A model generated the notes under the pieces. The model saw nothing but the letters and a program-made list of their open reading frames with translations. It was not told the origin of the DNA and made no database searches. A stretch of DNA of 20,000 bases from an uncultured virus (IMG/VR IMGVR_UViG_3300025098_000028) (taxonomy: Duplodnaviria; Heunggongvirae; Uroviricota; Caudoviricetes): the IMG/VR virus record IMGVR_UViG_3300025098_000028, one strand, 5' to 3'. How positions within the stretch are numbered: position 1 is the first letter of the stretch; each line of letters opens with the position of its first letter. Position numbers and translations under genes: made by a program. Shown one piece after another: positions 1-11,913 of the stretch.

Positions 1-16
1 GCCGAATTTGTGGATA

Positions 17-157
17 TTATATCCAACCTCTTAAAGAGGCTTTAAACTCATAATAAGCATCCCAAGATATGTAACACTTACAAGTTGGACACTCAAAACT
101 TTCATTCAATCCATTAGATACCATAGGCTCATCACAATCATCACACCATGCCGACAT
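17..157 (-). CDS. Small zinc-ribbon protein, 46 aa (not in ORF track)
   Basis: Manual translation MSAWCDDCDEPMVSNGLNESFECPTCKCYISWDAYYEFKASLRGWI* with CxxC...CxxC. Upstream GCAACCTTAT motif at the same distance as for the ATG at 2243. Confidence 0.7.
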   Translation of the reverse strand: MSAWCDDCDEPMVSNGLNESFECPTCKCYISWDAYYEFKASLRGWI

Positions 158-182
158 GGTAATACTCTAATAGAAAGTATAA

Positions 183-234
183 GGTTGCTTAATGCGAAAC
201 AAAGTTTCAAGCAACCATATGGTTGTAGACTTTG
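183..234. repeat. Hairpin-palindrome element copy 1
   Basis: Stem GGTTGCTT(183-190)/AAGCAACC(209-216) encloses GAAAC-AAA-GTTTC; core ACCATATGGT at 214-223; CTTTG at 230-234. Confidence 0.9.
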
Positions 235-545
235 GTAATGAAATGTAAACCCTATCCCCATGCAAAACTCCGGCTACTCGTTCAAAGCAAGTGAACACGC
301 TGATACTTGGTAGGTTTGATGAGAGGTCACTAATTAACTAGTATTTAGATAACTTCAATCTCTTTCCATATCCTTCCGAATTACATTTTGAACTTTGACT
401 TTCGCCTTCGTTTCACAATGGGGTTATGGCCACTAATAGCCATTGGAATAGGAGGGTTGTTCAACTAACATATAATATCGCTATATGCTCACCCCCGCAC
501 TACCTCTAGTGAAGGTATTGGTATTCGTCGAACTACCCGTGACAA

Positions 546-836
546 TTATTCTTCTTCATCTTTATTCCAAAAGACAAATACTTCTTGTCTGTATAAATTG
601 AAATCTACATATTCTTGAATCTCAATTTCATTAGTGTTAAAATTCATGGTTTTAATTTCGTCTTCTTCCCAAGCCATGCTATCCCAAAACAGAACCATAT
701 TGGATGCTGTATCGAATCCTATGGTCATTTTTTTAGCAATAGTTCCATCGGAATAAACAGTGGTTCCAAAACGGGTTTCTGAATTTACTACTCCTTGTTC
801 ATTGGTTGTTGGTAATTTATCATCCATATCAATCAC
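546..836 (-). CDS. Hypothetical protein
   Basis: 96 aa ORF, start overlaps the stop of the upstream 833-1048 gene; acidic C-terminus KDEEE. Confidence 0.65.
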   Translation of the reverse strand: MIDMDDKLPTTNEQGVVNSETRFGTTVYSDGTIAKKMTIGFDTASNMVLFWDSMAWEEDEIKTMNFNTNEIEIQEYVDFNLYRQEVFVFWNKDEEE

Positions 837-1048
837 AACTCATTATTTTGAATAATAGTAGTAACTACCCTTTCACCGTCTAAAACTTTGTTCAATGCGC
901 TAAGGCTAATTCTTAATGCAACATATGTTTGACCATCCGAGGTTGTGTATTTTCTACACTCTTCAAACGCATCAACATTAACTGATACTTTGATTTCACT
1001 ACCTGCATTACTTCTTCTAACATATCCAACCAATCTACTTTGATTCAT
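833..1048 (-). CDS. Hypothetical beta-rich small protein (probable start MNQSRLVGYVRRS)
   Basis: ORF 833-1087; the internal ATG at 1048 is 48 nt from element copy 2, matching the spacing of neighbouring genes. Confidence 0.7.
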   Translation of the reverse strand: MNQSRLVGYVRRSNAGSEIKVSVNVDAFEECRKYTTSDGQTYVALRISLSALNKVLDGERVVTTIIQNNEL

Positions 1049-1073
1049 GTCTAAATAATATGATTTAGGATTA

Positions 1074-1126
1074 GGGTTCGGCCTCAAAGATGCCTTACCA
1101 TATGGGTGATACTTTGATAATAGCCC
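1074..1126. repeat. Hairpin-palindrome element copy 2
   Basis: GGC-C-TC-AAA-GA-T-GCC arm, core ACCATATGGG at 1097-1106, then TGATA-CTTTG. Confidence 0.85.
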
Positions 1127-1137
1127 CGAAGGGCGGC

Positions 1138-1503
1138 CTATAGGCCAACTTCATGATATCCGTATAAGTCGAATATTTCTTCCATTACATATCTGCCAGT
1201 GTCTCGGTCATAGTGTTTTAGGGCAAAATAAATTTGACCATCACAATCACTATTATGATTCATAGCGAATTCTGCTGCAATTTTCAATACCGAAGTCAGT
1301 GCTTGAGACAATCCAGTAACATAAATATAAATTGTATTATCAGGATTCCAAACCATTTCTAAAAATTCTCTAGCCTGTTTTTCTAGAGTTTCAAAATCAT
1401 TTGGATTTTCAATAGGTTCGTCGAATATGAATAATTCGATTTTTTGTCCTTTGTCCTCAATTTCATGTCTTCCTTTGCACAATCCTGCTCTTACTACTAC
1501 CAT
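1138..1503 (-). CDS. Small Rossmann-like protein (GRH...YVTGL...HYDR motifs); possibly CARF/SAVED/Csx3-like
   Basis: 121 aa ORF. Strand-Gly-helix motif IYIYVTGLSQALTSV and C-terminal LKHYDRDTGRY. Fold assignment is tentative. Confidence 0.6.
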   Translation of the reverse strand: MVVVRAGLCKGRHEIEDKGQKIELFIFDEPIENPNDFETLEKQAREFLEMVWNPDNTIYIYVTGLSQALTSVLKIAAEFAMNHNSDCDGQIYFALKHYDRDTGRYVMEEIFDLYGYHEVGL

Positions 1504-1531
1504 GTTTAATATATTTTAATCAAAATATATG

Positions 1532-1582
1532 TGGTATTCTCAAAGATACTACCATATGGTAACGCTTACTTTGGGCGTTACC
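1532..1582. repeat. Hairpin-palindrome element copy 3
   Basis: TGGTA/TACCA arm around TC-AAA-GA; core at 1551-1560; GGTAACGC(1558-1565)/GCGTTACC(1575-1582) arm around CTTTG. Confidence 0.9.
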
Positions 1583-1586
1583 TCAT

Positions 1587-1641
1587 AAAAAAAACGGGGA
1601 GGGGCAGATGCTAGAGAAAACAAAATTCTAACATCTACCCC
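1587..1641 (-). terminator. 15-bp RNA stem with U-rich loop followed by an oligo-U tract
   Basis: Minus strand GGGGUAGAUGUUAGA/UCUAGCAUCUGCCCC is fully paired with two G-U; T8 run at 1587-1594; lies downstream of the 1677 gene. Confidence 0.65.
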
Positions 1642-1676
1642 ATGAATATGGCGACTCAAGGGCTAAAACTTGAGCC

Positions 1677-2192
1677 TCACTCTTCTTCTAAACCTCCGTC
1701 TGCTTTAACTGCTGTGGGGGTTATTTGTGGAACACCGTTCTTATTAGCGGTAACTCCATCCCATCTACCTTCCTTGATGGATTTCATCATATAGGAATTA
1801 GCGGCTTTTTTGTAGTTATTTGTTAGAGAATCATAGTCGGAGTATGTTCCGCCAGTTCTTCCGTGTGGCACAATTACAGTTAGTAAAGTTTCGTGGTATT
1901 CAGTAGGGATTGCCGCAAAAGCATTCGCGACAGCCATGTTCACATTGTCCACAACCATTTGCTGTTCTTCTGTTAGATTGCTCTCTCGGCCACGACGGGC
2001 GGTTGGAAAACCATCTTTTGTAGAACCAATTGAACGGATAGCCGTCCAATATGTGCTTCTTAATTCATCGCTACTAGCGTTATCCCCAAGTGTAAGGGAT
2101 AGCATAATTGCTTGTACCTCATCACATGGGTCTTGGGATTCAGCCCAAGTCCTGACCTTATTTGTATTCATTATCCAATTTGCTTGCTTCAT
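1677..2192 (-). CDS. Hypothetical protein, paralog of 3810-4280 (start 2192 with AGGTGA SD; alternative ATG at 2243)
   Basis: Shares L-x-L-x-x-G-x-N, DG-x-P-x(2-3)-RG, H-x(3-4)-GG-x-Y and K-x-G-x-WDG with the 3810 protein. Confidence 0.75.
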   Translation of the reverse strand: MKQANWIMNTNKVRTWAESQDPCDEVQAIMLSLTLGDNASSDELRSTYWTAIRSIGSTKDGFPTARRGRESNLTEEQQMVVDNVNMAVANAFAAIPTEYHETLLTVIVPHGRTGGTYSDYDSLTNNYKKAANSYMMKSIKEGRWDGVTANKNGVPQITPTAVKADGGLEEE

Positions 2193-2268
2193 AATTTTCA
2201 CCTTTTTAGATTGGTTTGACTCCGGTTTAGCCCTTGAAGTCATTATAATCTGCTGTATTCGGAAATAA

Positions 2269-2323
2269 GGTTGCGAACAAAGACACGCAACCATATGGTA
2301 AGGTAGTCTTTGACTACAGTACC
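2269..2323. repeat. Hairpin-palindrome element copy 4
   Basis: GGTTGCG/CGCAACC arm around CAAAG; core at 2290-2299; perfect hairpin GTAGTC-TTT-GACTAC at 2303-2317. Confidence 0.9.
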
Positions 2324-2365
2324 CTAATAGGAAATTAATTATATTAATCAAATGGTGAGGATAGA

Positions 2366-2512
2366 ATGACCACATATAAAATAATAAGATTTAGATTTGG
2401 AAGAGAAACGCAAACAATAAAAACGGGCTTAACACTAGAAGAAGCGCAAGCCCATTGTCAAGATGATGAAACAAGAGGAGATGGTTGGTTTGACGGTTAC
2501 ACTGAAGAATAA
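2366..2512 (+). CDS. Small viral protein, 48 aa (not in ORF track)
   Basis: MTTYKIIRFRFGRETQTIKTGLTLEEAQAHCQDDETRGDGWFDGYTEE*; strong SD GGTGAGG. Resembles a recurrent small phage family (GLTLEEAQAHC...WFDGY). Confidence 0.8.
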   Translation: MTTYKIIRFRFGRETQTIKTGLTLEEAQAHCQDDETRGDGWFDGYTEE

Positions 2513-2605
2513 ACTCATTAACATTGTATCGCTTGAATGTGCTAGAACTGACCACAGGCACAATTTGAAACATTGTAAGATTTGCATGAAAAAGAGGGAA
2601 AAGAA

Positions 2606-2851
2606 ATGACTAGAGATGACGAAATCCATTGGGAGGAGGAAATAGGAACAAAAAGGTGTGAAAACTGTATACAACACATTGGTAAATATGACGGATGGCA
2701 ACCGCATATTAGAGTATATACCGAGAAATACAGAAACACGGCAAACCCCTTGACTGATTTTAAAGATATATGCGTTACTTGTCATGATAGACCTAGTGAC
2801 ATGAAACCACTAGGGAGAAAGAGAACATTATTTGATGATTTATTTGGGTAA
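2606..2851 (+). CDS. Small CxxC...CxxCH zinc-binding protein (HNH-like cysteine pattern)
   Basis: ATG at 2606 after GAGGG; motifs CENC and CVTCH. Confidence 0.65.
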   Translation: MTRDDEIHWEEEIGTKRCENCIQHIGKYDGWQPHIRVYTEKYRNTANPLTDFKDICVTCHDRPSDMKPLGRKRTLFDDLFG

Positions 2852-2902
2852 ATCCCACATCCTCCGCTTGTCCTAACAAGTAAAAAAATAGGGTGGCTTT
2901 AG

Positions 2903-2959
2903 GGTCACTCCGTTTCATCCACAAAGTTTCATGACCATATGGTTGGGCTTTGGCCAACC
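2903..2959. repeat. Hairpin-palindrome element copy 5
   Basis: GGTCA/TGACC arm; core at 2934-2943; GGTTGG-G-CTTTG-G-CCAACC arm. Confidence 0.9.
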
Positions 2960-2989
2960 TAGTATTCATTATAAAATAATACAAGTTGT

Positions 2990-3220
2990 ATGGCGTTTTG
3001 TAGTTGCGGTATTTGTAGAGCGAAGTTTAATGGTGATAAGGCTCATCATTATTCGGATAATGAGGGTTTAGACCATCACCCTAAATGTAATCACATTTTG
3101 GAAAAAGAAATCCATAGAGAACAATACTATGACGAAGAATTACAAGATATAGTTATTTTGTATGAATGGTATTATTGCACCTGTGACGAAGAATACGCTA
3201 AAGAGGAGGAAGAAGAATAG
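2990..3220 (+). CDS. Cys/His-rich small protein
   Basis: 76 aa ORF with CSCGIC...CTC; starts 46 nt after the copy 5 core. Confidence 0.7.
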   Translation: MAFCSCGICRAKFNGDKAHHYSDNEGLDHHPKCNHILEKEIHREQYYDEELQDIVILYEWYYCTCDEEYAKEEEEE

Positions 3221-3227
3221 GCCGTGA

Positions 3228-3275
3228 GGCCACTAACCGCAAAGTTTCATGACCATATGGTTGTAAAAGTGCAAC
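3228..3275. repeat. Hairpin-palindrome element copy 6 (right arm degenerate)
   Basis: CAAAGTTTCATGACCATATGGTTG (3240-3263) is identical to 2922-2945; right arm GTTGTA/TGCAAC lacks CTTTG. Confidence 0.85.
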
Positions 3276-3376
3276 AAATCATTATTACAACACTATCAAT
3301 CAAACATGAATAGGTACTGACTTACATAACCCACTACAAACCCTTATTCTATGAGTCCTTTCCAATTGGCCTAATG

Positions 3377-3750
3377 AATATTAATATATTAATATAATAG
3401 AGTAGAACCTTCGAGTCGTCTCATGAGTTAGAAAAGTGAGATGAGACAACGAAGAGAAGAAACTAGAGGGTTGTGTAACACATCTATTATATTATATCAT
3501 ACTATCTCATTATCTCATTATCTCATAATAATAATGATGATGAGAGAGAGTGAGTGAAAAATACCCTATGAGGTATATATTAGGATTCGATGAGACGAGA
3601 TGAGACAACCCAAAAGTGCAGGTTTGGGGTAGTTTCTTTAAAGTTGTGTTACATAAGTCATTGTCTCATCATGAGATAACTCATGAGAATACCAAAGGGT
3701 CGTTTGACAGGGCGATTCTATTATGGAGATTAAATTCTAATATATTAATA
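3377..3750. repeat. ATGAG/CTCAT iteron-like repeat field flanked by AT-only tracts; candidate replication origin
   Basis: GAGATGAGACAAC at 3438-3450 and 3597-3609; inverted TTGTCTCATC at 3661; CTCATGAGTTA (3420) vs TAACTCATGAG (3677); tandem TATCTCAT x3 near 3503-3526; no long ORF. Confidence 0.6.
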
Positions 3751-3771
3751 CTTGAGCGAAAAAGAATTAAT

Positions 3772-3788
3772 TAGACTCCTTTAAATAT
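3772..3788 (+). promoter_or_regulatory. Archaeal-type promoter (BRE-like + TATA) TAGACTCCTTTAAATAT
   Basis: Exact 17-mer repeated at 8881-8897; TTTAAATA lies about 22 nt before ATG 3810 (leaderless spacing). Confidence 0.7.
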
Positions 3789-3809
3789 GAAATAATTTAT
3801 GGTTAATAC

Positions 3810-4280
3810 ATGATTGATGAAGTCGAATGGCAAAGTATGGTAATAGAAGTTAATGATTATTTGAAGGCAGACCCCACATTAAATGATGGTTTGAAGCAGG
3901 TAATCCAACTTAATTTACAAATAGGGAACAATAATCCCGATGAAAGAATAGCGGCAAAGGGTGCATTGAAGGCTCTATTGAAAGGAAGAGATGGAACTCC
4001 CTTTAAGCGAGGGCAGAAATCTAGTGTTCCTGCCACAGTTAGAGTATCTATTGATAAGGCAATTTCTATTATAGAAATAGAGTCACTTAATTATTACAAT
4101 TCACACCCAATAATGTCAAAGGTTCTTCGTAAGCATATTAAATCCGGTGGAGGAGATTATGCCAATGGAGAAGAATATGCCCACATTGTAGGTAAGAGGA
4201 TGAGAAATGCACTTGCTAAAAGATACAAGGATGGAGATTGGGATGGGAATTACGACTCTCTACTAACTACGACAGAATGA
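3810..4280 (+). CDS. Hypothetical protein, paralog of 1677-2192
   Basis: 156 aa ORF with motifs colinear with the 1677 protein. Confidence 0.8.
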   Translation: MIDEVEWQSMVIEVNDYLKADPTLNDGLKQVIQLNLQIGNNNPDERIAAKGALKALLKGRDGTPFKRGQKSSVPATVRVSIDKAISIIEIESLNYYNSHPIMSKVLRKHIKSGGGDYANGEEYAHIVGKRMRNALAKRYKDGDWDGNYDSLLTTTE

Positions 4281-4300
4281 TGGTGGTGCGTCATTCACTA

Positions 4301-4375
4301 GTGGGATATTAGGGTGTTTTCTTTTCTCTTTTTTTTAGGTACTTGCGTGTTTTCGATAATGCCCTAATATCTCAC
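4301..4375 (+). terminator. 18-bp RNA stem enclosing a U-rich loop
   Basis: GUGGGAUAUUAGGGUGUU/AAUGCCCUAAUAUCUCAC is fully paired with G-U on the + strand; the loop contains an oligo-U tract. Confidence 0.6.
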
Positions 4376-4393
4376 ACCCCCTTGGTGATTAAT

Positions 4394-4909
4394 ATGAATA
4401 AAGTACCTCAAAATGAAGCACACTTACACGACTCTATCATGAAGTATATTTTTGAAAGAATAGATAAGGAGATTAATGCTCCTTGTCATCAATGGATTGG
4501 GCCAACTAGTACCTCTCTTAAATTACCCTCACCAAGAGCAAAGAAGTTTGTTAATGGATATAGAAATAGTTTCATGCCACATATTGTCATGTACAATTAT
4601 CACAACTATCCTAATAAAAAAAGTCCGATAGATTGGAATAAGGGCAAAGGTCAAGAAATAAGAAGAAAATGTAATAATCTAATGTGCGTAAACATTGATT
4701 GTTTAGTTTTAGGGGATAGAAGTAAAACCATTCAAGCCACAATAAATAGGGGAAAGACGGCCATCGGGAATGACTACGGTGTTAAGTATGATGCTGATAT
4801 AATTAGGGCTGACCATCAAGCAGGACTTTCCTATCGAGATATTATGAAAAAGTACAATATACCCAGTAAAGGAACAATATCCTACATTATAAATAAAGCA
4901 AAAAGGTGA
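4394..4909 (+). CDS. HNH-family (Zn-binding loop) protein with C-terminal HTH, catalytically degenerate
   Basis: RRKCNNLMCVNIDCL vs canonical xHxCxNxxCVNPxHL; C-terminal GLSYRDIMKKYNIPSKGTISYII HTH; ATG 4394 after GGTGA. Confidence 0.7.
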   Translation: MNKVPQNEAHLHDSIMKYIFERIDKEINAPCHQWIGPTSTSLKLPSPRAKKFVNGYRNSFMPHIVMYNYHNYPNKKSPIDWNKGKGQEIRRKCNNLMCVNIDCLVLGDRSKTIQATINRGKTAIGNDYGVKYDADIIRADHQAGLSYRDIMKKYNIPSKGTISYIINKAKR

Positions 4910-4913
4910 TATT

Positions 4914-5162
4914 ATGAGATTAATAGAAGAAGTATATATCAAGGCAGAAAAAGACGAAATATGCCAAAAATGCGGTGTAGATATACTGGAAGGCAGTAAT
5001 TTTCTAATGGAAAGTTACATCCATAAAGGCAAATTATTATCTAACACTTATTGCTTGGCAAAGAAATGTAATCCTCCGAACAATGTTAGGTTAAGGTTGT
5101 TTTGGGGAACAATTATCGTAAGCATAAGTGCTTGGATTATTTACGGCATATACTTTAGATGA
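4914..5162 (+). CDS. Zinc-finger protein with C-terminal transmembrane helix
   Basis: CQKC...CLAKKC followed by hydrophobic LFWGTIIVSISAWIIYGIYF. Confidence 0.7.
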   Translation: MRLIEEVYIKAEKDEICQKCGVDILEGSNFLMESYIHKGKLLSNTYCLAKKCNPPNNVRLRLFWGTIIVSISAWIIYGIYFR

Positions 5163-5214
5163 TTCTCATTTAACTCTATAGATGCTCGATGACCCTGTGT
5201 CCACCCTTATATAC

Positions 5215-5419
5215 GGATGCGGCAGGTTAGGTTGTATCAAGTGGTCGAGGTTTGCACAAACAAACATGCAAACAACAAAGTTATGAAATAATTAATCTCT
5301 ATAGAGATAAATGATACGCAATATCCATGAGGGATAGCGAGCCAATGGCGACTCACAGAAGTAAATTTCGGTTAGTTCTCACCACTCTTTCATAATAATC
5401 TAACCGTGTGGCCGCATCC
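5215..5419. ncRNA. Candidate structured non-coding RNA (~205 nt)
   Basis: Nested long-range pairings 5215-5223/5411-5419, 5225-5230/5400-5405 and 5240-5245/5381-5386, plus internal hairpins. Confidence 0.55.
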
Positions 5420-5458
5420 CTCACCTATTCAATAAAGAGTAAAAATAAAGGTGAGAAC

Positions 5459-5620
5459 ATGACACATGAAAAATATGAATATAATAGCAAGAGCCATATG
5501 ATTATGGATTTAATGAAACATGAAGAATTGATGGAACTTCTTGGAGAGTTAATTCAACTTGACAAGACAGGACTCGTTGATGAAATAATTGATGATTTGG
5601 CATATGACTTAGAAAGGTGA
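5459..5620 (+). CDS. Small acidic hypothetical protein
   Basis: ATG 5459 after AAGGTGAG; stop overlaps the next start. Confidence 0.65.
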   Translation: MTHEKYEYNSKSHMIMDLMKHEELMELLGELIQLDKTGLVDEIIDDLAYDLER

Positions 5621-6909
5621 TGAAAATGAGAGAACTAGGAAATGGACATTGGGATAAAGCACTAATGAGAAACATGGTGCATTTATCTACAGCAAATAAC
5701 TATGAAGAAGCAAAAGATGAATGGCTAGCAACAGGTAATGTTTGGTGGGTCGGTAATGGCGAAACACCCGATTGGGTTGCTAATACAAACCACCAAGCAA
5801 AGTGCCTATGTGGTCATAATATCGTTTATCATTTTGAGATTCTAAATACTACAAATGGTGTAAGAGAATGTGTCGGTAGCGACCACATTAACTCCTATCT
5901 AATTATGAGACAAATTGCTCAAGAAAAGGGAATTGATATTTCCACAATTACTGAACAAGAAGTTGAAGATTGGAAAAAGAAAAGAGTTGGTTCTATGAAG
6001 GCTGAAGCATGGTGGAAAGAAAACGGAACTTCTTTCGATATGATGTTTGAAAAGGTCAAAGAAATTGATGTTTGGTTTAATGCTAGAATTAAATCTAGAT
6101 GGTATAATTCAAAATTAAGGCTAATGGAAGAAACTAGAGAACTAAGAAAAAGAGCAGAAGGTACTTATGGCAACCCTGATTACCATATGGCTTCTGTCGT
6201 TTGGAGATGGAATAGCGAAAATAATCCAAAGGCTCAATTTAGAACAAGAGGCTATCCTAATGATAGACTGATGCAGGATTTAGCATTATTATTTATCAAA
6301 TCCGAGCCGCTAATTAAAGAACTAGAAGCAATTAAACTTACTAAGAAATTAGCAGAAGAAGCCTATGAAGAAAGAGTAAGAATTCAACAAGAACAAAGAC
6401 AGGCTAGAATAGAATCAAGAAGGGCTAGAGAAGCAGAAGAACAAAGAATTTGGAATCTACCGGAAAATGTAGAAAAAAGAAGACTAGCAGATGAAGAACG
6501 CCAAAGACAAAGAGAGATATATCGTGCTGAACAGGCTAGAAAGGCAGAAGAATTTAGACTTAGCAAATTAAAAGAAAGAAAAGCAACCTTTGCTTTAAAG
6601 AGTGAAGTCTTTGAAGATAGTTGCGATTACTATGGAATACCTGTCTATGATGAAACTTATGCACAAAACGATTGGTCTTTTGAGTTTTTAGCAGACATCA
6701 AAAAACAAATGATTAGCGGTAGGGGTTTGAGTGATAATCAATTAAATAGCCTAAGAAATATCCTCGAACCCGCTACATCAAAGCAAATAACATTTTTGCG
6801 TGATTTGGCTTATGAAGGCTCTATAGAAAACCTCACTAAAGGACAGGCAGGTTATTTAATTAATAAACATAAATATCCCGAAAGTGAGAGGCATTCCGAT
6901 GATAATTGA
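5620..6909 (+). CDS. Viral protein with CxCG-H...VGxxH/C metal-binding domain, coiled coil and C-terminal ATxKQ helical motif
   Basis: KCLCGHNIVYHFEILNTTNGVRECVGSDHI; E/R/Q-rich coil; PATSKQITFLRDL...LTKGQAGYLI. Confidence 0.8.
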   Translation: MKMRELGNGHWDKALMRNMVHLSTANNYEEAKDEWLATGNVWWVGNGETPDWVANTNHQAKCLCGHNIVYHFEILNTTNGVRECVGSDHINSYLIMRQIAQEKGIDISTITEQEVEDWKKKRVGSMKAEAWWKENGTSFDMMFEKVKEIDVWFNARIKSRWYNSKLRLMEETRELRKRAEGTYGNPDYHMASVVWRWNSENNPKAQFRTRGYPNDRLMQDLALLFIKSEPLIKELEAIKLTKKLAEEAYEERVRIQQEQRQARIESRRAREAEEQRIWNLPENVEKRRLADEERQRQREIYRAEQARKAEEFRLSKLKERKATFALKSEVFEDSCDYYGIPVYDETYAQNDWSFEFLADIKKQMISGRGLSDNQLNSLRNILEPATSKQITFLRDLAYEGSIENLTKGQAGYLINKHKYPESERHSDDN

Positions 6910-7147
6910 CTGGATTAAACGGTTCTTTGTCACGGAAAAAAAAATAAAAAGTCCTAAGTGCAATATTTGTGGCTTAGGCGCAAAGTTCCATATGTTAGTT
7001 GAATTTCAAACAATGGAACTGGTAGAAATTGAAAATAAAATATTAATAAAAATATGTGGTGAATGTTATGAAGAAGTATATGAAAGATATAATCCCGAAA
7101 GAACACCACCGACAATACAAGTCGGGGTATTTGAATCGAGATTGTAA
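6899..7147 (+). CDS. Zinc-finger protein
   Basis: CNICG...CGECY; ATG 6899 overlaps the end of the upstream gene. Confidence 0.7.
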   Translation: MIIDWIKRFFVTEKKIKSPKCNICGLGAKFHMLVEFQTMELVEIENKILIKICGECYEEVYERYNPERTPPTIQVGVFESRL

Positions 7148-7247
7148 ACATGAAGAAAGAAGAATAAAAATATGTAAGCAATTAATTACTAAGGGTGTTA
7201 AGCACTATAAAGCATATGAAATCTCTCTAAGGAGGATGGAAATATGA
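7056..7247 (+). CDS. Small basic hypothetical protein (start uncertain)
   Basis: Fills the gap between neighbours; stop overlaps the next ATG (ATGA). Confidence 0.45.
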   Translation: MVNVMKKYMKDIIPKEHHRQYKSGYLNRDCKHEERRIKICKQLITKGVKHYKAYEISLRRMEI

Positions 7248-7879
7248 ATATATTTGCATTATCAAAAGACCCAGTAGAATCAGCACAAGAGATGTTAGAT
7301 AAGCATGTAGTTAAGATGCCGACTGAAACTTGTCAAATGCTACACACAAATGCACTATTCAATGAATTCGTTGATAGATATGGCTATGAACCTTCTCTTA
7401 GAAGACTAAAAGAATACCACGAAGAAACAGATTCTATGCTAATGAAACCTGCTATGTTGAATCATCCTAGCACTATTTGGGCTAGACAGAATATTCATAA
7501 TACATTATGGTTGTATAATCATGGTATTGCTTTGTGCGGAGAATATACAGAAAGATATGATAAACAGCATGGAGCGTTTGAAAGAATGCTACAGACTCCT
7601 ATTGAGTTTGATGCTGATACTACATTAGCAACTCCTGTATCAATCGCCATGTTCGATGAGTATAGAATACCAAATGAATATGGTGAACATTGTTGGGATT
7701 ATGTAATTGATTCTTATAGGCATTATTACTTAGAAGGCAAATGGCAATTTGCTGAATGGCCGGAAGGTAAAATGCCAAATTGGTGGCCTAAGAACCACAG
7801 GGCAAAAAAATACAATGTAGGTGTTAGAGCATATAATGCTACTAATCCTAGATTCCCAAAAGTATTAATGGAGGAATAA
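7244..7879 (+). CDS. Pyrimidine-dimer DNA glycosylase / T4 endonuclease V-like family protein
   Basis: MNIFALSKDPVESAQEMLDKHVVKMPTETCQML, NHPSTIWAR, EYTERYDKQH, SYRHYY-x-x-x-K and a W-rich tail, typical of the viral Pyr_excise-like family. Confidence 0.8.
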   Translation: MNIFALSKDPVESAQEMLDKHVVKMPTETCQMLHTNALFNEFVDRYGYEPSLRRLKEYHEETDSMLMKPAMLNHPSTIWARQNIHNTLWLYNHGIALCGEYTERYDKQHGAFERMLQTPIEFDADTTLATPVSIAMFDEYRIPNEYGEHCWDYVIDSYRHYYLEGKWQFAEWPEGKMPNWWPKNHRAKKYNVGVRAYNATNPRFPKVLMEE

Positions 7880-7881
7880 AA

Positions 7882-8097
7882 ATGGATGAAGAAATATATA
7901 AAATAATAACAGATGCTTATGGAACTGTCTATGAACCTGCCCCTAGAGGGCAAATAGAATTGCATAAGAAACATGCAAGTGAGGGAATGGATATTGCCCT
8001 TTCTTATTTCAAGAAAAACCCAAGTGCAGAACATTTTAACTTGCTAAAAGTTGCTATGCTAACTTATCAGTATTGGGTTCATAAGAAGGTGATTTAA
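7882..8097 (+). CDS. Hypothetical protein
   Basis: 71 aa ORF with GGAGG SD. Confidence 0.7.
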   Translation: MDEEIYKIITDAYGTVYEPAPRGQIELHKKHASEGMDIALSYFKKNPSAEHFNLLKVAMLTYQYWVHKKVI

Positions 8098-8207
8098 TGA
8101 AAATAAAATATAGATGTTTAAATTGTAATAAAGTAATTAGTAAAGACAGACATTATTGCTACGGTTGTTTTACCGAAGCAGAAGATAAGGTGAATAAAAA
8201 TGAATGA
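8097..8207 (+). CDS. 36 aa zinc-finger microprotein (not in ORF track)
   Basis: MKIKYRCLNCNKVISKDRHYCYGCFTEAEDKVNKNE*; AGGTGA SD; TAATG coupling. Confidence 0.7.
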   Translation: MKIKYRCLNCNKVISKDRHYCYGCFTEAEDKVNKNE

Positions 8208-8517
8208 TTGTAAAATATGTAATGGAGCAGGTTTCTATAAACAAGCAAACCATAGATTAGAAATTCTAGAATGGGTTGAGTGTATAGAATGTATGCTAGA
8301 AGACCACTATAGAGAATCAATTGAATTTGATATACAGTTGCTACTATCTAAAACTAGTCCTCAAAAACTAGCACAAATTGTAGCACAACTATTAGTCAAT
8401 TCGATGGATATGGAAGGCCAAGAGAGCCTTCAAAGATTAGATGATATAGCACAAGGGAAAGATGTAATGAATCTCCTAGTGCTTGCAGAAACAACAGTAA
8501 ATGGAATAAAGAAGTGA
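8200..8517 (+). CDS. Protein with N-terminal CxxCxGxG...CxxC zinc finger
   Basis: CKICNGAG...CIEC; AGGTGA SD. Confidence 0.75.
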   Translation: MNDCKICNGAGFYKQANHRLEILEWVECIECMLEDHYRESIEFDIQLLLSKTSPQKLAQIVAQLLVNSMDMEGQESLQRLDDIAQGKDVMNLLVLAETTVNGIKK

Positions 8518-8521
8518 TAAC

Positions 8522-8767
8522 ATGATAACAGAAGAAAAGACACAAGTAGAGTTTAGAATTATAAACACAGAAGAAATGCCCCCTATTGTAATAACCCAAA
8601 GTGATAATGACAACCCTAAAGTGGTGTTGAATATTCATCACAAAATTTGGATTAGTCTACATAGGAAAGTGATAGCAGGTATTATTGAAAGCCTCCAAGA
8701 TAAATTGGATTCAATATTAACCTCTTATTTAGCAGAACAAAGAGCATTTGAAAAGATGGATGAGTGA
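8522..8767 (+). CDS. Hypothetical protein
   Basis: 81 aa ORF within the operon. Confidence 0.7.
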   Translation: MITEEKTQVEFRIINTEEMPPIVITQSDNDNPKVVLNIHHKIWISLHRKVIAGIIESLQDKLDSILTSYLAEQRAFEKMDE

Positions 8768-8772
8768 ACAAA

Positions 8773-8883
8773 ATGATAGGAAAAATATTAGAAAAAGTAG
8801 TAATAACAACGCTAGCAATAGGAACAGGAGCATTCATGCTCGGCTTTTTAGCCCAAAATGATGATTACGAGGATTTAGAATAG
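8773..8883 (+). CDS. 36 aa single-pass membrane peptide (not in ORF track)
   Basis: MIGKILEKVVITTLAIGTGAFMLGFLAQNDDYEDLE*. Confidence 0.55.
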   Translation: MIGKILEKVVITTLAIGTGAFMLGFLAQNDDYEDLE

Positions 8884-8897
8884 ACTCCTTTAAATAT
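8881..8897 (+). promoter_or_regulatory. Second copy of promoter TAGACTCCTTTAAATAT, upstream of the Ubl gene
   Basis: Identical to 3772-3788. Confidence 0.7.
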
Positions 8898-8936
8898 AGT
8901 ATGAAGAATGAATAGAATATAACGGAAAGTGATAAG

Positions 8937-9143
8937 ATGATTAGATTAAGAATTATGAACGAAACAGGCCATACAGAAGTAATGTTGAGTAGTGACAGCA
9001 TTATCGAACAAATTGACACACACCCAACCCATTGGTGTTTTATTGATGGGGAAATGGTAGCAAGAGAAGAAATTTCGAATGTTAATTGGGATGAAGTCCA
9101 AGCAGTAGACCTAACTCCTGCTATTGTTGGAGGATGCGAATAA
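8937..9143 (+). CDS. Ubiquitin-like beta-grasp protein (ThiS/MoaD/SAMP-like) with GG followed by a 2-residue extension
   Basis: 68 aa; FIDGEMV and VDLTPAIVGG-CE match the ThiS/MoaD C-terminal pattern; E1 and JAB genes lie downstream. Confidence 0.8.
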   Translation: MIRLRIMNETGHTEVMLSSDSIIEQIDTHPTHWCFIDGEMVAREEISNVNWDEVQAVDLTPAIVGGCE

Positions 9144-9171
9144 TTACTATTCAATAATACTTCATACTTAC

Positions 9172-9209
9172 GGAGGAGGGCTATTTTCTCCTATTAATAG
9201 TCCTTCTCC
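9172..9209 (+). terminator. 14-bp RNA stem after the Ubl gene
   Basis: GGAGGAGGGCUAUU/AAUAGUCCUUCUCC is fully paired with two G-U. Confidence 0.55.
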
Positions 9210-9227
9210 ACCTATTTAGGTGATATT

Positions 9228-9605
9228 TTGAGAGGCTTTGAATCGTATCAAGAGTTTTTGACTACGGTTCTAGTTTTCTCACAACATCTATCTATTGATT
9301 CCCTTGAAAAAATTAATGATGCTAGGGAATACATATCGAATAATAGATGGATGACAAAAAAGGAAAAATATAATTATTGGTGCAATACCATACATCTTTG
9401 TCTTTGGGAAATACCCCAAGCAATAGATATCGGATTCAACGCATATCTAAATGAGAAACTCTCTCATTATAGAGATGCCTTAAGATATCATGATGAAAAT
9501 TGTGATAACTACTATAACTGTAAAGTCTGTGAGTTAAAAACAGATATGATAAATAAAATGAGTGATTTAAATGACAAAAGAAAAAGACCCGAAGTATGTT
9601 CTTAA
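9228..9605 (+). CDS. Hypothetical protein with H/C cluster
   Basis: TTG start after AGGTGA; H-x3-C-x5-CxxC. Confidence 0.7.
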   Translation: MRGFESYQEFLTTVLVFSQHLSIDSLEKINDAREYISNNRWMTKKEKYNYWCNTIHLCLWEIPQAIDIGFNAYLNEKLSHYRDALRYHDENCDNYYNCKVCELKTDMINKMSDLNDKRKRPEVCS

Positions 9606-9735
9606 TAAAAGAAAGAACAAAACAGTGGCAACATGCTGTAGAGTGTGTGGAGGTCAGTTGATGACAGCACAAGATATAGCAAAGGAAATACACGAAGAGT
9701 GTGATAGAGATAATAATAAAATATACATGATGTGA
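9571..9735 (+). CDS. 54 aa zinc-finger protein (not in ORF track)
   Basis: MTKEKDPKYVLNKRKNKTVATCCRVCGGQLMTAQDIAKEIHEECDRDNNKIYMM*; CxxC...HxxC. Confidence 0.65.
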   Translation: MTKEKDPKYVLNKRKNKTVATCCRVCGGQLMTAQDIAKEIHEECDRDNNKIYMM

Positions 9736-9739
9736 TAAT

Positions 9740-10906
9740 ATGGAAAAAATGGAAATACAAATTAAGAAACCAAATGATAGTAATGAATATTATATAACAT
9801 CAGTTTCCTGTAATGAAGAACAAGGAGTCTATTTTCCCACTAGGAGAACTGTTGTCTATGATATGACACATAAAGACCCTGTTCATGCAGGTATTGTAAA
9901 ATTATGGAAAGAGATTCTAGGAACTAGAAGAAGTTATTTTCCTAGCGATAGAGACTATAGCATAATGATTATGATAAAATCTTGCCCTTTACTTATTGGT
10001 AGAAGCGGGAGTAGATTAAAACTTCAAGGGCAGTATGCTAGTCTTTCTACTATTGCCTCTATTTTAGCGAGGGTAACTTACAAATCTTGTTTTGAAGATG
10101 ACCCCGAAAAATTGATGTTAAGTGTTTATTCTACAATGAATTTACCCGAAGATGCTAGGTATTGTTTAGAAAACAGAATGCCATACCACTTTTACGAAGA
10201 CTTTGAAAAGATAGAAGTTAGATTAAACTGTCAGCAAATTAGTGATACAGAATTAGCCGTAGAAATAACTGATGGTGTTTGGGGAACTATGAAAATAAAA
10301 GATGTTACAGCATATTGTAGTTTCTACTTACATAAAAATGAAAGAGGTAAGAAATGGAAACGGCTCTCACCTAAGAAATTGTATACTGTTCTAGTTGGTA
10401 AGAAACCAACAGATTCCCAATTAAAAGTAATGGCCGCCTTTCTAAAACAGAATAGAATGGGCGATATTGTAGAAAAGAGAGCCATGCAATTAGTAGATGA
10501 TATGTTAGAACAACACCAAGAAAAACTAATACCGTTTTTCGATACAAATGGTGTTTTGAGAGATTTGGTTGTAAAAGGCAAACAACATGATTGGAGGCTT
10601 ACATACCGAGGTTCCGGAGACTATAGAAGAACGACAGGTAGACAAAATGTTTCTACCTATATTCTTCAAGAAGTAACTAGAGATGATGAATTAGTAAAAG
10701 AATGGAAAGGGCCGATATGTATAGATAACATGGCAGGAGGTTCTCCATTAGGCGACCAATATGCTGCTAGAGCATTAGCCCTAATGAATGATACTCATAC
10801 TATGAAAATAGTAAGCACAATTAGAAGTTACATTGTAAATGATAATAAAGATATAAGAGTGGATGAAAATGTATTGCGAAAATTGCGGGAAAGAGACTCC
10901 GAATGA
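9740..10906 (+). CDS. 388 aa protein; C-terminal region is a candidate E2/UBC-like domain
   Basis: The ORF is solid. GPICIDNMAGGSP (Cys327) resembles the E2 active-site G-x-ICLD-x-L-x(3-4)-SP, and the gene lies between Ubl and E1. Function is tentative. Confidence 0.5.
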   Translation: MEKMEIQIKKPNDSNEYYITSVSCNEEQGVYFPTRRTVVYDMTHKDPVHAGIVKLWKEILGTRRSYFPSDRDYSIMIMIKSCPLLIGRSGSRLKLQGQYASLSTIASILARVTYKSCFEDDPEKLMLSVYSTMNLPEDARYCLENRMPYHFYEDFEKIEVRLNCQQISDTELAVEITDGVWGTMKIKDVTAYCSFYLHKNERGKKWKRLSPKKLYTVLVGKKPTDSQLKVMAAFLKQNRMGDIVEKRAMQLVDDMLEQHQEKLIPFFDTNGVLRDLVVKGKQHDWRLTYRGSGDYRRTTGRQNVSTYILQEVTRDDELVKEWKGPICIDNMAGGSPLGDQYAARALALMNDTHTMKIVSTIRSYIVNDNKDIRVDENVLRKLRERDSE

Positions 10907-11738
10907 GTTTGATGAAAGACTAGGAGAACACACTTGTTTAGATTGTGGCCTTGTTTTAGTTACAGAAATATTTGAACAGACTGTTCATATTTTAGATAGT
11001 AGCGGAGAAGTAAGACATTCTATAGATAATAAATTAGGTTCAGTGAATGCCCCTAGTAAATTAAATAGACTAAACAATCGTTCTATTTATTCTAAGAGTA
11101 TTATCCAAGGATTGATTCATTGTAATATGGTTTTAGGCTCTATACAGCCCAACTCGCCACTAAAGGATAGAGTTGAAGAGTTTTACCTATACTGTAATAG
11201 AAAGGCAGTATTCGGTAAAACACAATACGAGGCTAGAGCAACCGCAGTAGTATATTATGTATTGAAAGAGAACGGAACTCCTCATCTATTGGCTGATGTA
11301 AATAGCGAATTTAATGCTAGGACAAAAACAGTAAAAAAACTATTGAGAAAGATGAATCAACTAAATAAAAACATGGTTAGTAGAAAACCTATCAATCCTC
11401 AATATCAATTAGAACAAGTATTAATGAAGATTAATGGTGGTTCTGTCTTCAATGAACAATGTTATGAAGTTTTAGAATATTTCGAAAGCGTTATTGTAAA
11501 TAGCGACTTTAACAAAGGGCGTTCCTATTACGCCTGTATTGCGTGGATAGCGGCCAACTGTAATGTTAGAAAAGACATACAACGGCAAATGATTTCTAAG
11601 AGAACGAAGTTTTCCGAATGGGTCATTTGGAACCAAACAAAAGCAATACTAAACCTAGTAGGAAAAGATAATGTAAACCAAATAAAAGGAAAGAAAATAA
11701 CAATGGTGATTAAGAATGATAAAAGAAGAATGGATTGA
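10863..11738 (+). CDS. tfb: Transcription initiation factor IIB (TFB) homolog
   Basis: N-terminal Zn ribbon CENCG...DERLGEHTCLDCGLV, then two cyclin-like repeats (EARATAVVYY; KGRSYYACIAWIAA...QMISKRTKFSEWVI). Confidence 0.85.
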   Translation: MKMYCENCGKETPNEFDERLGEHTCLDCGLVLVTEIFEQTVHILDSSGEVRHSIDNKLGSVNAPSKLNRLNNRSIYSKSIIQGLIHCNMVLGSIQPNSPLKDRVEEFYLYCNRKAVFGKTQYEARATAVVYYVLKENGTPHLLADVNSEFNARTKTVKKLLRKMNQLNKNMVSRKPINPQYQLEQVLMKINGGSVFNEQCYEVLEYFESVIVNSDFNKGRSYYACIAWIAANCNVRKDIQRQMISKRTKFSEWVIWNQTKAILNLVGKDNVNQIKGKKITMVIKNDKRRMD

Positions 11739-11913
11739 ATACTATGTGTATTTAGAAGAGTTAAGACAAAGTGGAGTAACCAATATGTTTGGTGCTACTC
11801 CATATTTGAGAGAAGAGTTTGGCTTAGGCCGAAGAGAGGCAATAAAGATTCTAGGTAGTTGGATGGATAACTATGCTGAATTGATAGAAAAAGGAATAAT
11901 TAGGAGAGAATAA
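11716..11913 (+). CDS. DUF5049-like small protein
   Basis: LRQSGVTNMF motif. Confidence 0.7.
   Translation: MIKEEWIEYYVYLEELRQSGVTNMFGATPYLREEFGLGRREAIKILGSWMDNYAELIEKGIIRRE

Follow-up and report, generated by a model that had tools for sequence, protein, structure and literature searches.

Palindromic joints of an accessory gene array in a magrovirus-like virus: probable two-faced promoters that double as recombination hot spots

Introduction

What are the short palindromic elements that separate the small genes at one end of a 20,000-nucleotide stretch of DNA from an uncultured tailed virus (IMG/VR record IMGVR_UViG_3300025098_000028), and what do they do for that virus? An initial annotation, made from the letters of this stretch (hereafter the window), had described six such elements as the hairpin-bearing joints of a cassette-like array in an archaeal virus, and had offered two readings of them, one as recombination sites in folded DNA and the other as hairpin promoters. 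By comparing the window with related viral genomes and with metagenome contigs, we arrive at an account in which the element is probably a two-faced promoter/operator joint that doubles as a recombination hot spot, making it an archaeal-virus counterpart of the promoter-early stem-loops (PeSLs) of T4-type phages.

Our literature searches turned up no description of the element and, as far as they reach, nothing in print on the control or exchange of genes in magroviruses, the group that this virus resembles. The available text of two magrovirus papers (PMC5434244, PMC11706807; supplements aside) mentions neither TFIIB nor promoters, palindromes or hairpins.

Results

The 8-mer CCATATGG occurs seven times in the window against an expectation of 0.27, a count that none of 200 dinucleotide-preserving shuffles reached. 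Six of these copies are intergenic and lie within the first 3.3 kb, at positions 215, 1098, 1552, 2291, 2935 and 3253; the seventh (6183–6190) falls within the open reading frame (ORF) 5617–6909, has no CAAAG or CTTTG flanks and is taken as a chance occurrence. In five of the six intergenic copies the palindrome extends to the exact 10-mer ACCATATGGT (hereafter the core), while the copy that starts at 1097 reads ACCATATGGG, with a different outer base, the final letter being G. The copies share the layout CAAAG-N-ACCATATGGT-N-CTTTG, that is, CAAAG, 6–10 nt, the core, 5–9 nt and CTTTG, with a core-to-CTTTG distance of 5 to 10 nt across the window; from copy 3253 the right-hand CTTTG is absent. 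Each interval between elements holds one or two small ORFs, which lie on the minus strand to the left of element 2291 and on the plus strand to its right. The six cores, the five stem sequences quoted in the initial annotation and its count of small genes per interval were all confirmed; the copies were located by exact-pattern and hairpin scans, which may miss degenerate copies with a mutated core. CATATG, the hexamer within the core, is not avoided elsewhere (14 occurrences against 12.9 expected in the window, and 34 against 37.5 in the complete relative G003), and a restriction-site explanation of the core was rejected on these counts.

The element is confined to a single array. An exact element 24-mer matched two IMG/VR contigs, G001 and G002, which come from different samples and have identical core spacing; all eight exact 10-mers lie within about 4 kb in them, and the reversed-pattern control gave none. 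G001 is collinear with window positions 3240–11908 at about 77% identity, and because it has four further cores upstream of the counterpart of core 215, the array probably extends past the left end of the window. In four genomes rated 100% complete by CheckV, one region of 2.3–5.4 kb holds 10 of 11, 8 of 8, 6 of 6 and 4 of 4 copies of the 8-mer (reversed-pattern control: 1, 1, 0 and 0). The array consists of small ORFs between the structural and replication modules in four complete and two partial relatives; in G003 it lies beside the start of the replication module, and in G001 between leftward structural genes and rightward replication genes. A degenerate form of the pattern was found at no fewer than 151 IMG/VR loci, and at least 22 contigs, many of them 84–97 kb long, carry several copies. 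Even between viruses with proteins of only 30–60% identity, the core is unchanged.

In three complete genomes (L160 at 9135, L161 at 3787 and L162 at 7079) the joint that lies at the far end of the array is truncated, with CTTTG directly after CCATATGG, and continues into a common AT-rich stretch with a long T-run; this truncated joint might mark a conserved end of the array. Across the genomes of 185,579 archaeal and other prokaryotic species, the full pattern gave 35 scattered single matches, none of them in a Poseidoniales record, which is about the number to be expected by chance (30–60, by our own estimate). The only cellular-genome record with two full elements (L193; NZ_NZTP01000027.1), 460 nt apart on a 14.8-kb contig, belongs to a metagenome-assembled genome (MAG) of Altibacter sp. 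and probably represents magrovirus DNA that was binned with a bacterium.

Read outward from its centre, a half-element has the anatomy ATGGT-arm-CTTTG-arm-ACC(C/T)TAWA. Across six arrays with 42 elements, ATGGT opens 80 of the 84 halves and CTTTG lies within 26 nt of the core in 70 of them; among 142 halves from complete elements, ACC comes after CTTTG in 116, mostly 4–8 nt on, and is followed by C or T, then T (64%), A (77%), W and A. The distance from CTTTG to a start codon is fixed: an ATG that opens an ORF of at least 35 codons stands 33–40 nt past CTTTG in 17 of 70 halves compared with 106 of 3000 random anchors (p = 3e-10), and in the six arrays the distances peak sharply at 36 nt (7 cases) and 37 nt (6 cases). 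Window ORFs placed in this way are 17–157, 833–1048, 1138–1503 and 2990–3220, none of which has a Shine-Dalgarno sequence. Array genes sit on both strands, each 34–42 nt from its own CTTTG and TA box, and the positions of ACC and CTTTG put the start of the TA box about 24–29 nt ahead of the ATG. For comparison, the TATA box of the intergenic-repeat (IR) promoters of halovirus HF2 starts at -26 from mapped transcript starts, according to the accessible text of PMC8707807. A canonical TTTAAATA box also lies 24–31 nt before the ATG at 3810 in the same window.

This geometry suggests that every half works as an archaeal TATA promoter whose mRNA is leaderless or has a short leader, so that a pair of TFB-recognition element (BRE)/TATA promoters would fire both ways from one joint. 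The predicted promoters look like ordinary archaeal TATA promoters beside a hairpin, with no sign that the hairpin itself is the promoter. The promoter reading of the initial annotation is supported by the geometry (CTTTG 36–37 nt before starts, a TA-rich box after ACC). The palindrome would sit about 45–60 nt upstream of both divergent starts, a distance at which activators and repressors are commonly bound in archaea, and may be the site of a dimeric DNA-binding protein, as an operator or an upstream activating site.

The description of the virus as archaeal is supported by a magrovirus-like gene content and by a homologue of the archaeal factor TFB. In the case of the gene content, window proteins include a GroEL-type chaperonin, an ATP-dependent DNA ligase, a ThiF-like protein and a clamp-loader-like ATPase. 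In G001 a second ligase (1005 aa) is embedded in a tailed-virus structural module, and G003, a complete relative of 92.8 kb, adds RFC, an ERCC4 nuclease, a PD-(D/E)XK nuclease and a family-B DNA polymerase that is split into two ORFs about 900 nt apart (L166:13792-14715 and L166:15633-17285). These viruses thus have the magrovirus gene set of a structural module, an archaeal-type replisome, a chaperonin in the replication block and a second ATP ligase in the structural module. The accessible text of PMC5434244 describes a split PolB in magrovirus group B1, GroEL in the replication block of groups B, B1 and C, and a ligase inside the structural module. By its gene content we class the virus as a magrovirus-like tailed virus, thought to infect Marine Group II archaea; records of cultured phages gave no DNA match to window positions 1–4000.

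The TFB homologue is a 291-aa protein (10863–11738) with a TFIIB zinc ribbon that is conserved in G001 and G003. Of its 90 homologues of 197–297 aa, some pass the Pfam threshold for the TFIIB cyclin repeat and are named TFIIB by the Joint Genome Institute; a search of PDB sequences with the window protein gave no match. A virus-encoded TFB homologue would make no sense without an archaeal transcription machine. Two bacterial readings of the half-element were rejected. Sigma-70-like promoter sites are not enriched in the window (14 against 15.8 in shuffles), the spacing from CTTTG to the TA box is unlike that of a -35/-10 pair, and the host is archaeal. If TTTG were instead the -33 element of a Bacteroidota-phage promoter, a second element should follow at the right spacing, and none was seen downstream when read by eye; the magrovirus-like gene content and the TFB homologue speak against this reading as well. 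Intrinsic-terminator consensus sites are not enriched in the window either (2 against 2.4 in shuffles).

The covariation of the stems within the arms is real. Across 143 unique halves the mean arm folding energy is -2.79 kcal/mol, against -1.46 when half-arms were recombined between elements (p = 7e-14); 25% of the arms reach -4 kcal/mol, against 7% in this control, and the best stem has 5.5 rather than 3.9 Watson-Crick pairs, with six or more pairs in 49% as opposed to 16%. Covariation was scored in 35 arms picked by geometry alone (ACC mirrors GGT around CTTTG), which carry 33 distinct stems. Here 106 of 190 variable cells pair, plus 22 that form G:T, against 66.9±5.5 with swapped partners, a result matched by 0 of 1000 shuffles. 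Structure rather than sequence is thus conserved in the stems, as the window copies had led the initial annotation to suggest. At the orthologous joint shared by element 2291 and G001 core 11032, the flanking genes are 80% identical and the stems are wholly different, yet both are self-complementary. Furthermore, GGT-started hairpins around CTTTG occur only beside the core (all 4 in the window array, all 3 in that of G003), and the hairpins found away from the arrays (1 in the window, 10 in G003) have neither GGT nor core.

Stem pairing is far from perfect. Eleven window arms bear CTTTG or CAAAG; five of them fold at -5 kcal/mol or better under DNA parameters and the other six at 0 to -3.8 kcal/mol. 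The term "double-hairpin" used in the initial annotation is therefore a generous one, literally true of element 2291 only, the one window element with two strong arms, and at element 3253 the right arm has no CTTTG at all.

Could the arms act in RNA? The element might be a processing, 3'-end-stabilising or termination signal between genes, carried in read-through transcripts of either direction. Its strand-symmetric design (AAA-loop hairpin, ACCAUAUGGU, UUU-loop hairpin) would suit such a role, as would the presence of elements between every pair of transcription units and stems that covary and tolerate G:T, which accounts for 24 of 70 internal mismatches against a share of 22% in swapped controls (p = 0.012). 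However, the strand asymmetry of these wobbles, G:T over A:C at 24:7, is within what composition alone predicts (67% G:T, p = 0.15), no U-run lies past the arms, and separate GC-rich tetraloop hairpins with T-runs already stand between stop codons and arms (for example, a hairpin followed by T8 at 1590–1640 on the minus strand). Searches with Rfam gave no family match in window positions 1–4000, and the fixed distance to the ATG points to a promoter role at the level of DNA. A role of the element in RNA therefore seems quite unlikely.

Hairpins are promoters in their own right in phage N4, whose virion RNA polymerase recognises short hairpins in the DNA ahead of early genes, each with a loop of 3 nt and about 11 nt from the start. 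Several arms are likewise perfect stems closed on a TTT loop. Unlike the N4 hairpins, those described here lie about 36 nt from the predicted start, with a TATA-like box in between, in a virus with an archaeal host. No RNA polymerase family appears among the Pfam matches of the 158 ORFs scanned (22 in the window, 35 in G001 and 101 in G003), a search in which divergent forms could be missed.

As expected for the cassette-like array of the initial annotation, relatives differ from one another by entire units, and the unit junctions lie within the palindrome, with one exception among those seen. Unit E (2939–3256) is 93% identical to a G001 unit that lies four joints further from the replication module, while neighbouring units are 75–80% identical. 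The cores at its ends are chimeric relative to G001: core 2935 combines the left flank of G001 core 11732 with the right flank of core 8543, and core 3253 the left flank of core 8859 with the right flank of core 11732. Flanks as clean as these place the crossovers within CCATATGGTT or the identical 23-mer. Between the window and G001 the arms of unit E do not differ, in agreement with the initial parsing of each unit as ATGGT-hairpin...gene...hairpin-ACCAT. G001 lacks unit B (1102–1555) from one core to the next, and G003 has it at a different place; core 215 and its G001 counterpart have homologous right flanks and unrelated left flanks. In addition, units A, B, C and D are reordered in G003 and G005 relative to the window, gene d1 is inverted in G003, and both family-C genes of G005 are inverted relative to the replication module. 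The exception concerns genes d1 and d2, which are adjacent without a core in the window and lie in different units in G003, a junction off the core. The initial annotation had named two outcomes that would speak against it, namely relatives with constant gene content and order or with breakpoints unrelated to the cores, and stems without supported covariation. What we found are changes at the cores, with unit junctions in the palindrome, and covariation with statistical support.

Contigs from independent metagenomes support strain-level variation at the same places. One contig of run X12 matches positions 2501–2943 with 2 differences over 443 nt and then enters a different CTTTG arm, and a contig of run X7 diverges after 3263, again towards a CTTTG arm of another sequence; the window order across cores 2935 and 3253 is reproduced by a second X7 contig with 0 differences. 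Assembly chimeras appear an unlikely source of these junctions because the shared repeat is at most 24 nt, shorter than the usual assembly k-mers. Contig joints at 2851>3930, 2597>3225, 2060>2697, 2054>400 and others, which come from relatives of less than 90% identity and are not at cores, were left out.

Junctions of this kind would also be produced by dedicated site-specific recombination sites, with the palindrome as crossover region and the structure-conserved arms as the feature recognised, perhaps as extruded or single-stranded hairpins. The enzyme would then be a host Xer-type recombinase, an unrecognised viral protein, or a structure-specific nuclease acting with a ligase, and the promoters would simply be carried by the units. 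In every cleanly resolvable case (both ends of unit E and the X12 and X7 contigs) the junction is inside the 10-bp core, and the arms travel with unit E as the ATGGT-arm...arm-ACCAT parsing predicts. Insertion/deletion and inversion are both seen, as a symmetric crossover region permits in the sites of tyrosine recombinases. Such a system would also fit the perfect conservation of the core among divergent viruses, would account for covarying hairpins and a short core better than promoter joints do, and could draw on the ERCC4/XPF-type nuclease, the PD-(D/E)XK nuclease and the two DNA ligases encoded in G001 and G003. However, Pfam and PHROG profiles (E ≤ 0.001-0.01) matched no tyrosine recombinase, serine recombinase, HUH or transposase family in the 158 ORFs. 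The only relevant matches among the 22 window ORFs are to HNH-type endonucleases, which agrees with the remark in the initial annotation that no recombinase is visible there. Recombination alone does not explain the fixed distance to start codons, and the separation of d1 from d2 does not use the core. Moreover, no core-joined circle or inversion junction was seen among the contig joints, although contigs cannot show rare forms, and no element copy marks a host site in archaeal genomes, the 35 scattered matches being close to chance. We regard dedicated sites as possible, if on balance unlikely.

A related comparison is with integrons, in which small unrelated genes lie between attC sites, imperfect inverted repeats that are conserved in structure and at which units are gained and lost. 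The palindrome and folded arms might by analogy be the site of an integron-like exchange of cassettes in archaeal viruses, in which the symmetric crossover region would let circles be excised and re-inserted at any other joint, either way round and each with its own promoter, through an enzyme that escapes current profiles or a Xer-type recombinase hijacked from the host. Each unit would then be expressed wherever it was inserted, since its promoter would travel with it. Like attC, the element resembles a recombination site with conserved structure and variable sequence (33 distinct stems in 35 arms). Unlike integrons, these viruses have no IntI-type integrase among the 22 window, 35 G001 and 101 G003 ORFs and neither an attI site nor a common promoter, and their units, which appear to carry promoters of their own, lie in both orientations; the element is symmetric, and its conserved core and loop motifs differ from those of attC. 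We regard integron-like exchange as unlikely. With no recombinase in the 158 ORFs, predicted promoters in the units, both orientations in use and the d1/d2 junction off the core, the reading of the elements as attC- or HUH-like sites in folded DNA, the first of the two in the initial annotation, was not established.

The six window elements differ mainly in their arms. Element 1 (183–252) has the left arm GGTTGCTT...AAGCAACC with CAAAG at 200–204 and, beyond a core at 214–223, a right-hand CTTTG at 230–234 without a stable hairpin (-9.3 kcal/mol left, 0.0 right). Element 2 (1074–1117; CAAAG 1085–1089, core 1097–1106, CTTTG 1112–1116) has arms of -3.8 and -0.7 kcal/mol. A weak left arm (CAAAG 1541–1545; -2.2 kcal/mol) and a strong right arm, GGTAACGC...GCGTTACC (-8.0 kcal/mol), flank the core of element 3 (1533–1582; core 1551–1560). 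Element 4 (2269–2323; core 2290–2299), which lies in the divergent gap, has the left arm GGTTGCG...CGCAACC (-7.4 kcal/mol) and the right arm GTAGTC-TTT-GACTAC (-5.2 kcal/mol). In element 5 (2900–2959; core 2934–2943) the left arm is weak (CAAAG 2922–2926) and the right arm, GGTTGG...CCAACC, is strong (-7.1 kcal/mol). Element 6 (3232–3277; core 3252–3261) has a left side, CAAAGTTTCATGA (3240–3252), identical to that of element 5.

To the left of element 1 lies an ORF for a zinc-ribbon-like protein of 46 aa (17–157, minus strand), its ATG 42 nt past the outward CTTTG. Unit A, between elements 1 and 2, contains a 71-aa ORF (833–1048, minus strand) with homologues in G001 and G003, whose ATG is 36 nt past the outward CTTTG of element 2; behind it follows a second gene of 96 aa (546–836, minus strand) with a weak PHROG match only. 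The rest of the unit includes a block at 265–490, of uncertain strand and without a conserved ORF, which begins about 31–36 nt past the right-hand CTTTG of element 1, a position that coincides with the transcript start predicted from that half. The block is 74.7% identical to G001, is also common to G003, and is where contig depth is highest in four metagenome runs; it includes the stretches CCGGCTACT..TTCAA, TAACTAGTATT and TTGACTTTCGCCTTCGTTTC.CAATGGGGTTATGGCCACTAATAGCCATTGGAAT, and in contigs of 4 runs homology starts at 265. It may be a small RNA; Rfam gave no match for it, and a fold of three sequences is weak and suggestive at most.

Unit B contains a 121-aa ORF (1138–1503, minus strand) with its ATG 37 nt past the outward CTTTG of element 3. 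Unit C is occupied by the family-C gene (1677–2243, minus strand), preceded by an ATG-containing conserved leader that starts at 2243, 34 nt past CTTTG; the true start is likely the ATG at 2192, about 50 nt into the leader and behind GGTGA. Unit D, on the plus strand (2366–2851), holds d1 (2366–2512, 48 aa) and d2 (2582–2851). Unit E holds an ORF for a Cys-rich protein of 76 aa (2990–3220, plus strand), whose ATG is 37 nt past the outward CTTTG of element 5.

Family C is the most conserved gene of the array; of the five relatives examined, four (G001, G003, G004 and G005) each carry two paralogues. Its proteins are all-alpha, of 162–188 aa, with an acidic C-terminal tail and conserved RSTYWTAIRSIGS, PHGRTGG and KEGRWDG motifs, and the members examined share a conserved leader, TGCTTCAAGGGGCTAA-like. 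Searches of Pfam and PDB sequences gave no match. With an AlphaFold model (pLDDT 76, pTM 0.46), the best Foldseek hit had an uninformative E = 0.64, and VIA-align gave Z ≤ 8.1 on a generic helical bundle of 59 residues, within the stated noise of that tool for helical models. No match informative in sequence or fold thus supports a role of family C as the cognate binding factor of the palindrome.

Between the array and the first gene of the replication module, positions 3400–3720 are free of ORFs and packed with direct and inverted repeats of the ATGAGAC/GTCTCAT type and with AT-rich palindromes; the 13-mer GAGATGAGACAAC occurs twice and TATCTCAT forms four tandem units, and gene orientation and GC skew switch nearby. 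This region is a candidate replication origin. The elements might accordingly be imagined as replication-linked hairpins that serve in priming or fork pausing, in a virus that encodes its own replisome and whose array adjoins an iteron-like region, in the window, and a switch of gene orientation and GC skew. Position is, however, the sole tie between element and replication, and the elements are spaced one per gene at a fixed distance from start codons, which leaves a replication role very improbable. RNA-level and replication roles thus both appear less likely than the promoter joints proposed here.

Further into the window, an HNH-endonuclease-like ORF (4343–4909; PHROG endonuclease/HNH matches) looks like a mobile homing-endonuclease insertion, with positions 4402–4886 missing from the otherwise collinear G001. 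In G003, several 6-bp palindromes are depleted (CCATGG 0 against 12 expected, GATATC 10 against 31.7, GGTACC 1 against 6.2), which may be a trace of host restriction systems.

Discussion

In the account that we consider probable, the palindrome ACCATATGGT would be bound by a dimeric protein, and on each side of it an arm of the form ATGGT-N4-10-CTTTG-N4-9-ACC, often folding as a hairpin, would end at a TA-rich box (ACC-C/T-T-A-W-A) some 25 nt ahead of the start codon of the outward gene or, for family C, of the conserved leader. Small accessory genes would in this way each carry their own copy of one co-regulated promoter, and probably belong to the early or host-takeover genes. With their tendency to form hairpins, the arms may cause breaks or the stalling of replication forks. 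Recombination between units would then resolve inside the palindrome, because this is the only sequence that all units share, and would move whole arm-promoter-gene-arm units; it would be general or microhomology-driven rather than carried out by a dedicated system.

Several observations weigh against these promoter joints. An ATG at 33–40 nt is found in only the 17 of 70 halves mentioned above, and many halves that face the 3' ends of genes keep a full arm and ACC-TA box, for which a pure promoter would have no need. Promoter activity and the transcript starts are read from geometry. The spacing from core to CTTTG is variable (index 4–19, mostly 9–13), which is awkward for one rigid protein that reads both, and no candidate protein that binds the palindrome was found, family C being without an informative fold match. 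Arm stability is the same in promoter-facing halves (-3.4 kcal/mol, n = 17) as in the others (-3.0 kcal/mol, n = 53), and an operator/promoter in double-stranded form does not account for the covariation of the hairpins. Finally, a shared core of 10 bp is very short for ordinary homologous recombination, and variants among near-identical strains would be easier to explain by a dedicated enzyme.

The best-supported analogy would be one in which the logic is that of T4-type PeSLs (also the subject of Comeau et al. 2014, PMC4122927) and the building blocks are archaeal promoter parts like those of the HF2 intergenic repeats. In neither case is the likeness complete: an invariant palindrome, covarying arms and two-sidedness set the element apart from either. 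In the accessible text of Arbiol et al. (2010; PMC2839356), PeSLs are mobile regulatory cassettes in hyperplastic regions of T4-type phages. Like them, the element described here is a short repeated intergenic cassette that combines promoter-like geometry with a stem-loop (six copies in the window, 42 in the six arrays) and is concentrated among small genes of unknown function, in this case in one array of 2.3–5.4 kb. In both systems the cassette delimits the insertions, deletions and replacements by which close relatives differ, here with d1/d2 as the one exception seen, and no dedicated recombinase is involved as far as the text of that paper and our profile searches go. The differences from PeSLs are an archaeal host with a predicted TATA-type promoter in place of a sigma-70 early promoter, a dyad symmetry with an invariant 10-bp palindrome, two arms and genes served on both sides, stems that are variable and covary where those of PeSLs are conserved terminators, and a shared identity of only about 10 bp. 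For PeSLs, the same text also reports mini-circles (PMC2839356).

The other half of the analogy comes from HF2 and the haloferacalesviruses (Russ, Pfeiffer and Dyall-Smith 2021, PMC8707807). As in the window, a repeated intergenic sequence acts there, or would act, as a promoter in an archaeal tailed virus; the accessible text describes BRE/TATA promoters with TATA at about -26 from mapped starts (the TA box predicted here would lie about 24–29 nt before the ATG), different repeat classes in different genome regions, and some repeats that are active in both directions. A sub-string of the HF2 class I beta-motif has 0 matches in the window, class II not having been searched. Unlike the HF2 repeats as described in that text, the element has a central palindrome and covarying hairpins, and whereas HF2 repeats keep their position and orientation among relatives, the units here are reordered, absent or flipped between the window, G001, G003 and G005.

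Magroviruses are among the most abundant viruses of the ocean, and their hosts are uncultured. For these viruses, the element would serve as a sequence tag for one co-regulated class of genes, probably the early or host-takeover class, with transcript starts predicted to within a few bases, and would mark the places at which marine strains exchange accessory genes. If this account is true, mobile cassettes that combine a promoter with a hairpin evolved independently in T4-type bacterial viruses and in archaeal tailed viruses, which would suggest a general solution to the problem of keeping a shuffleable pool of accessory genes. The covarying hairpins, which go beyond a plain promoter, are the part of the element most likely to hide new biochemistry.

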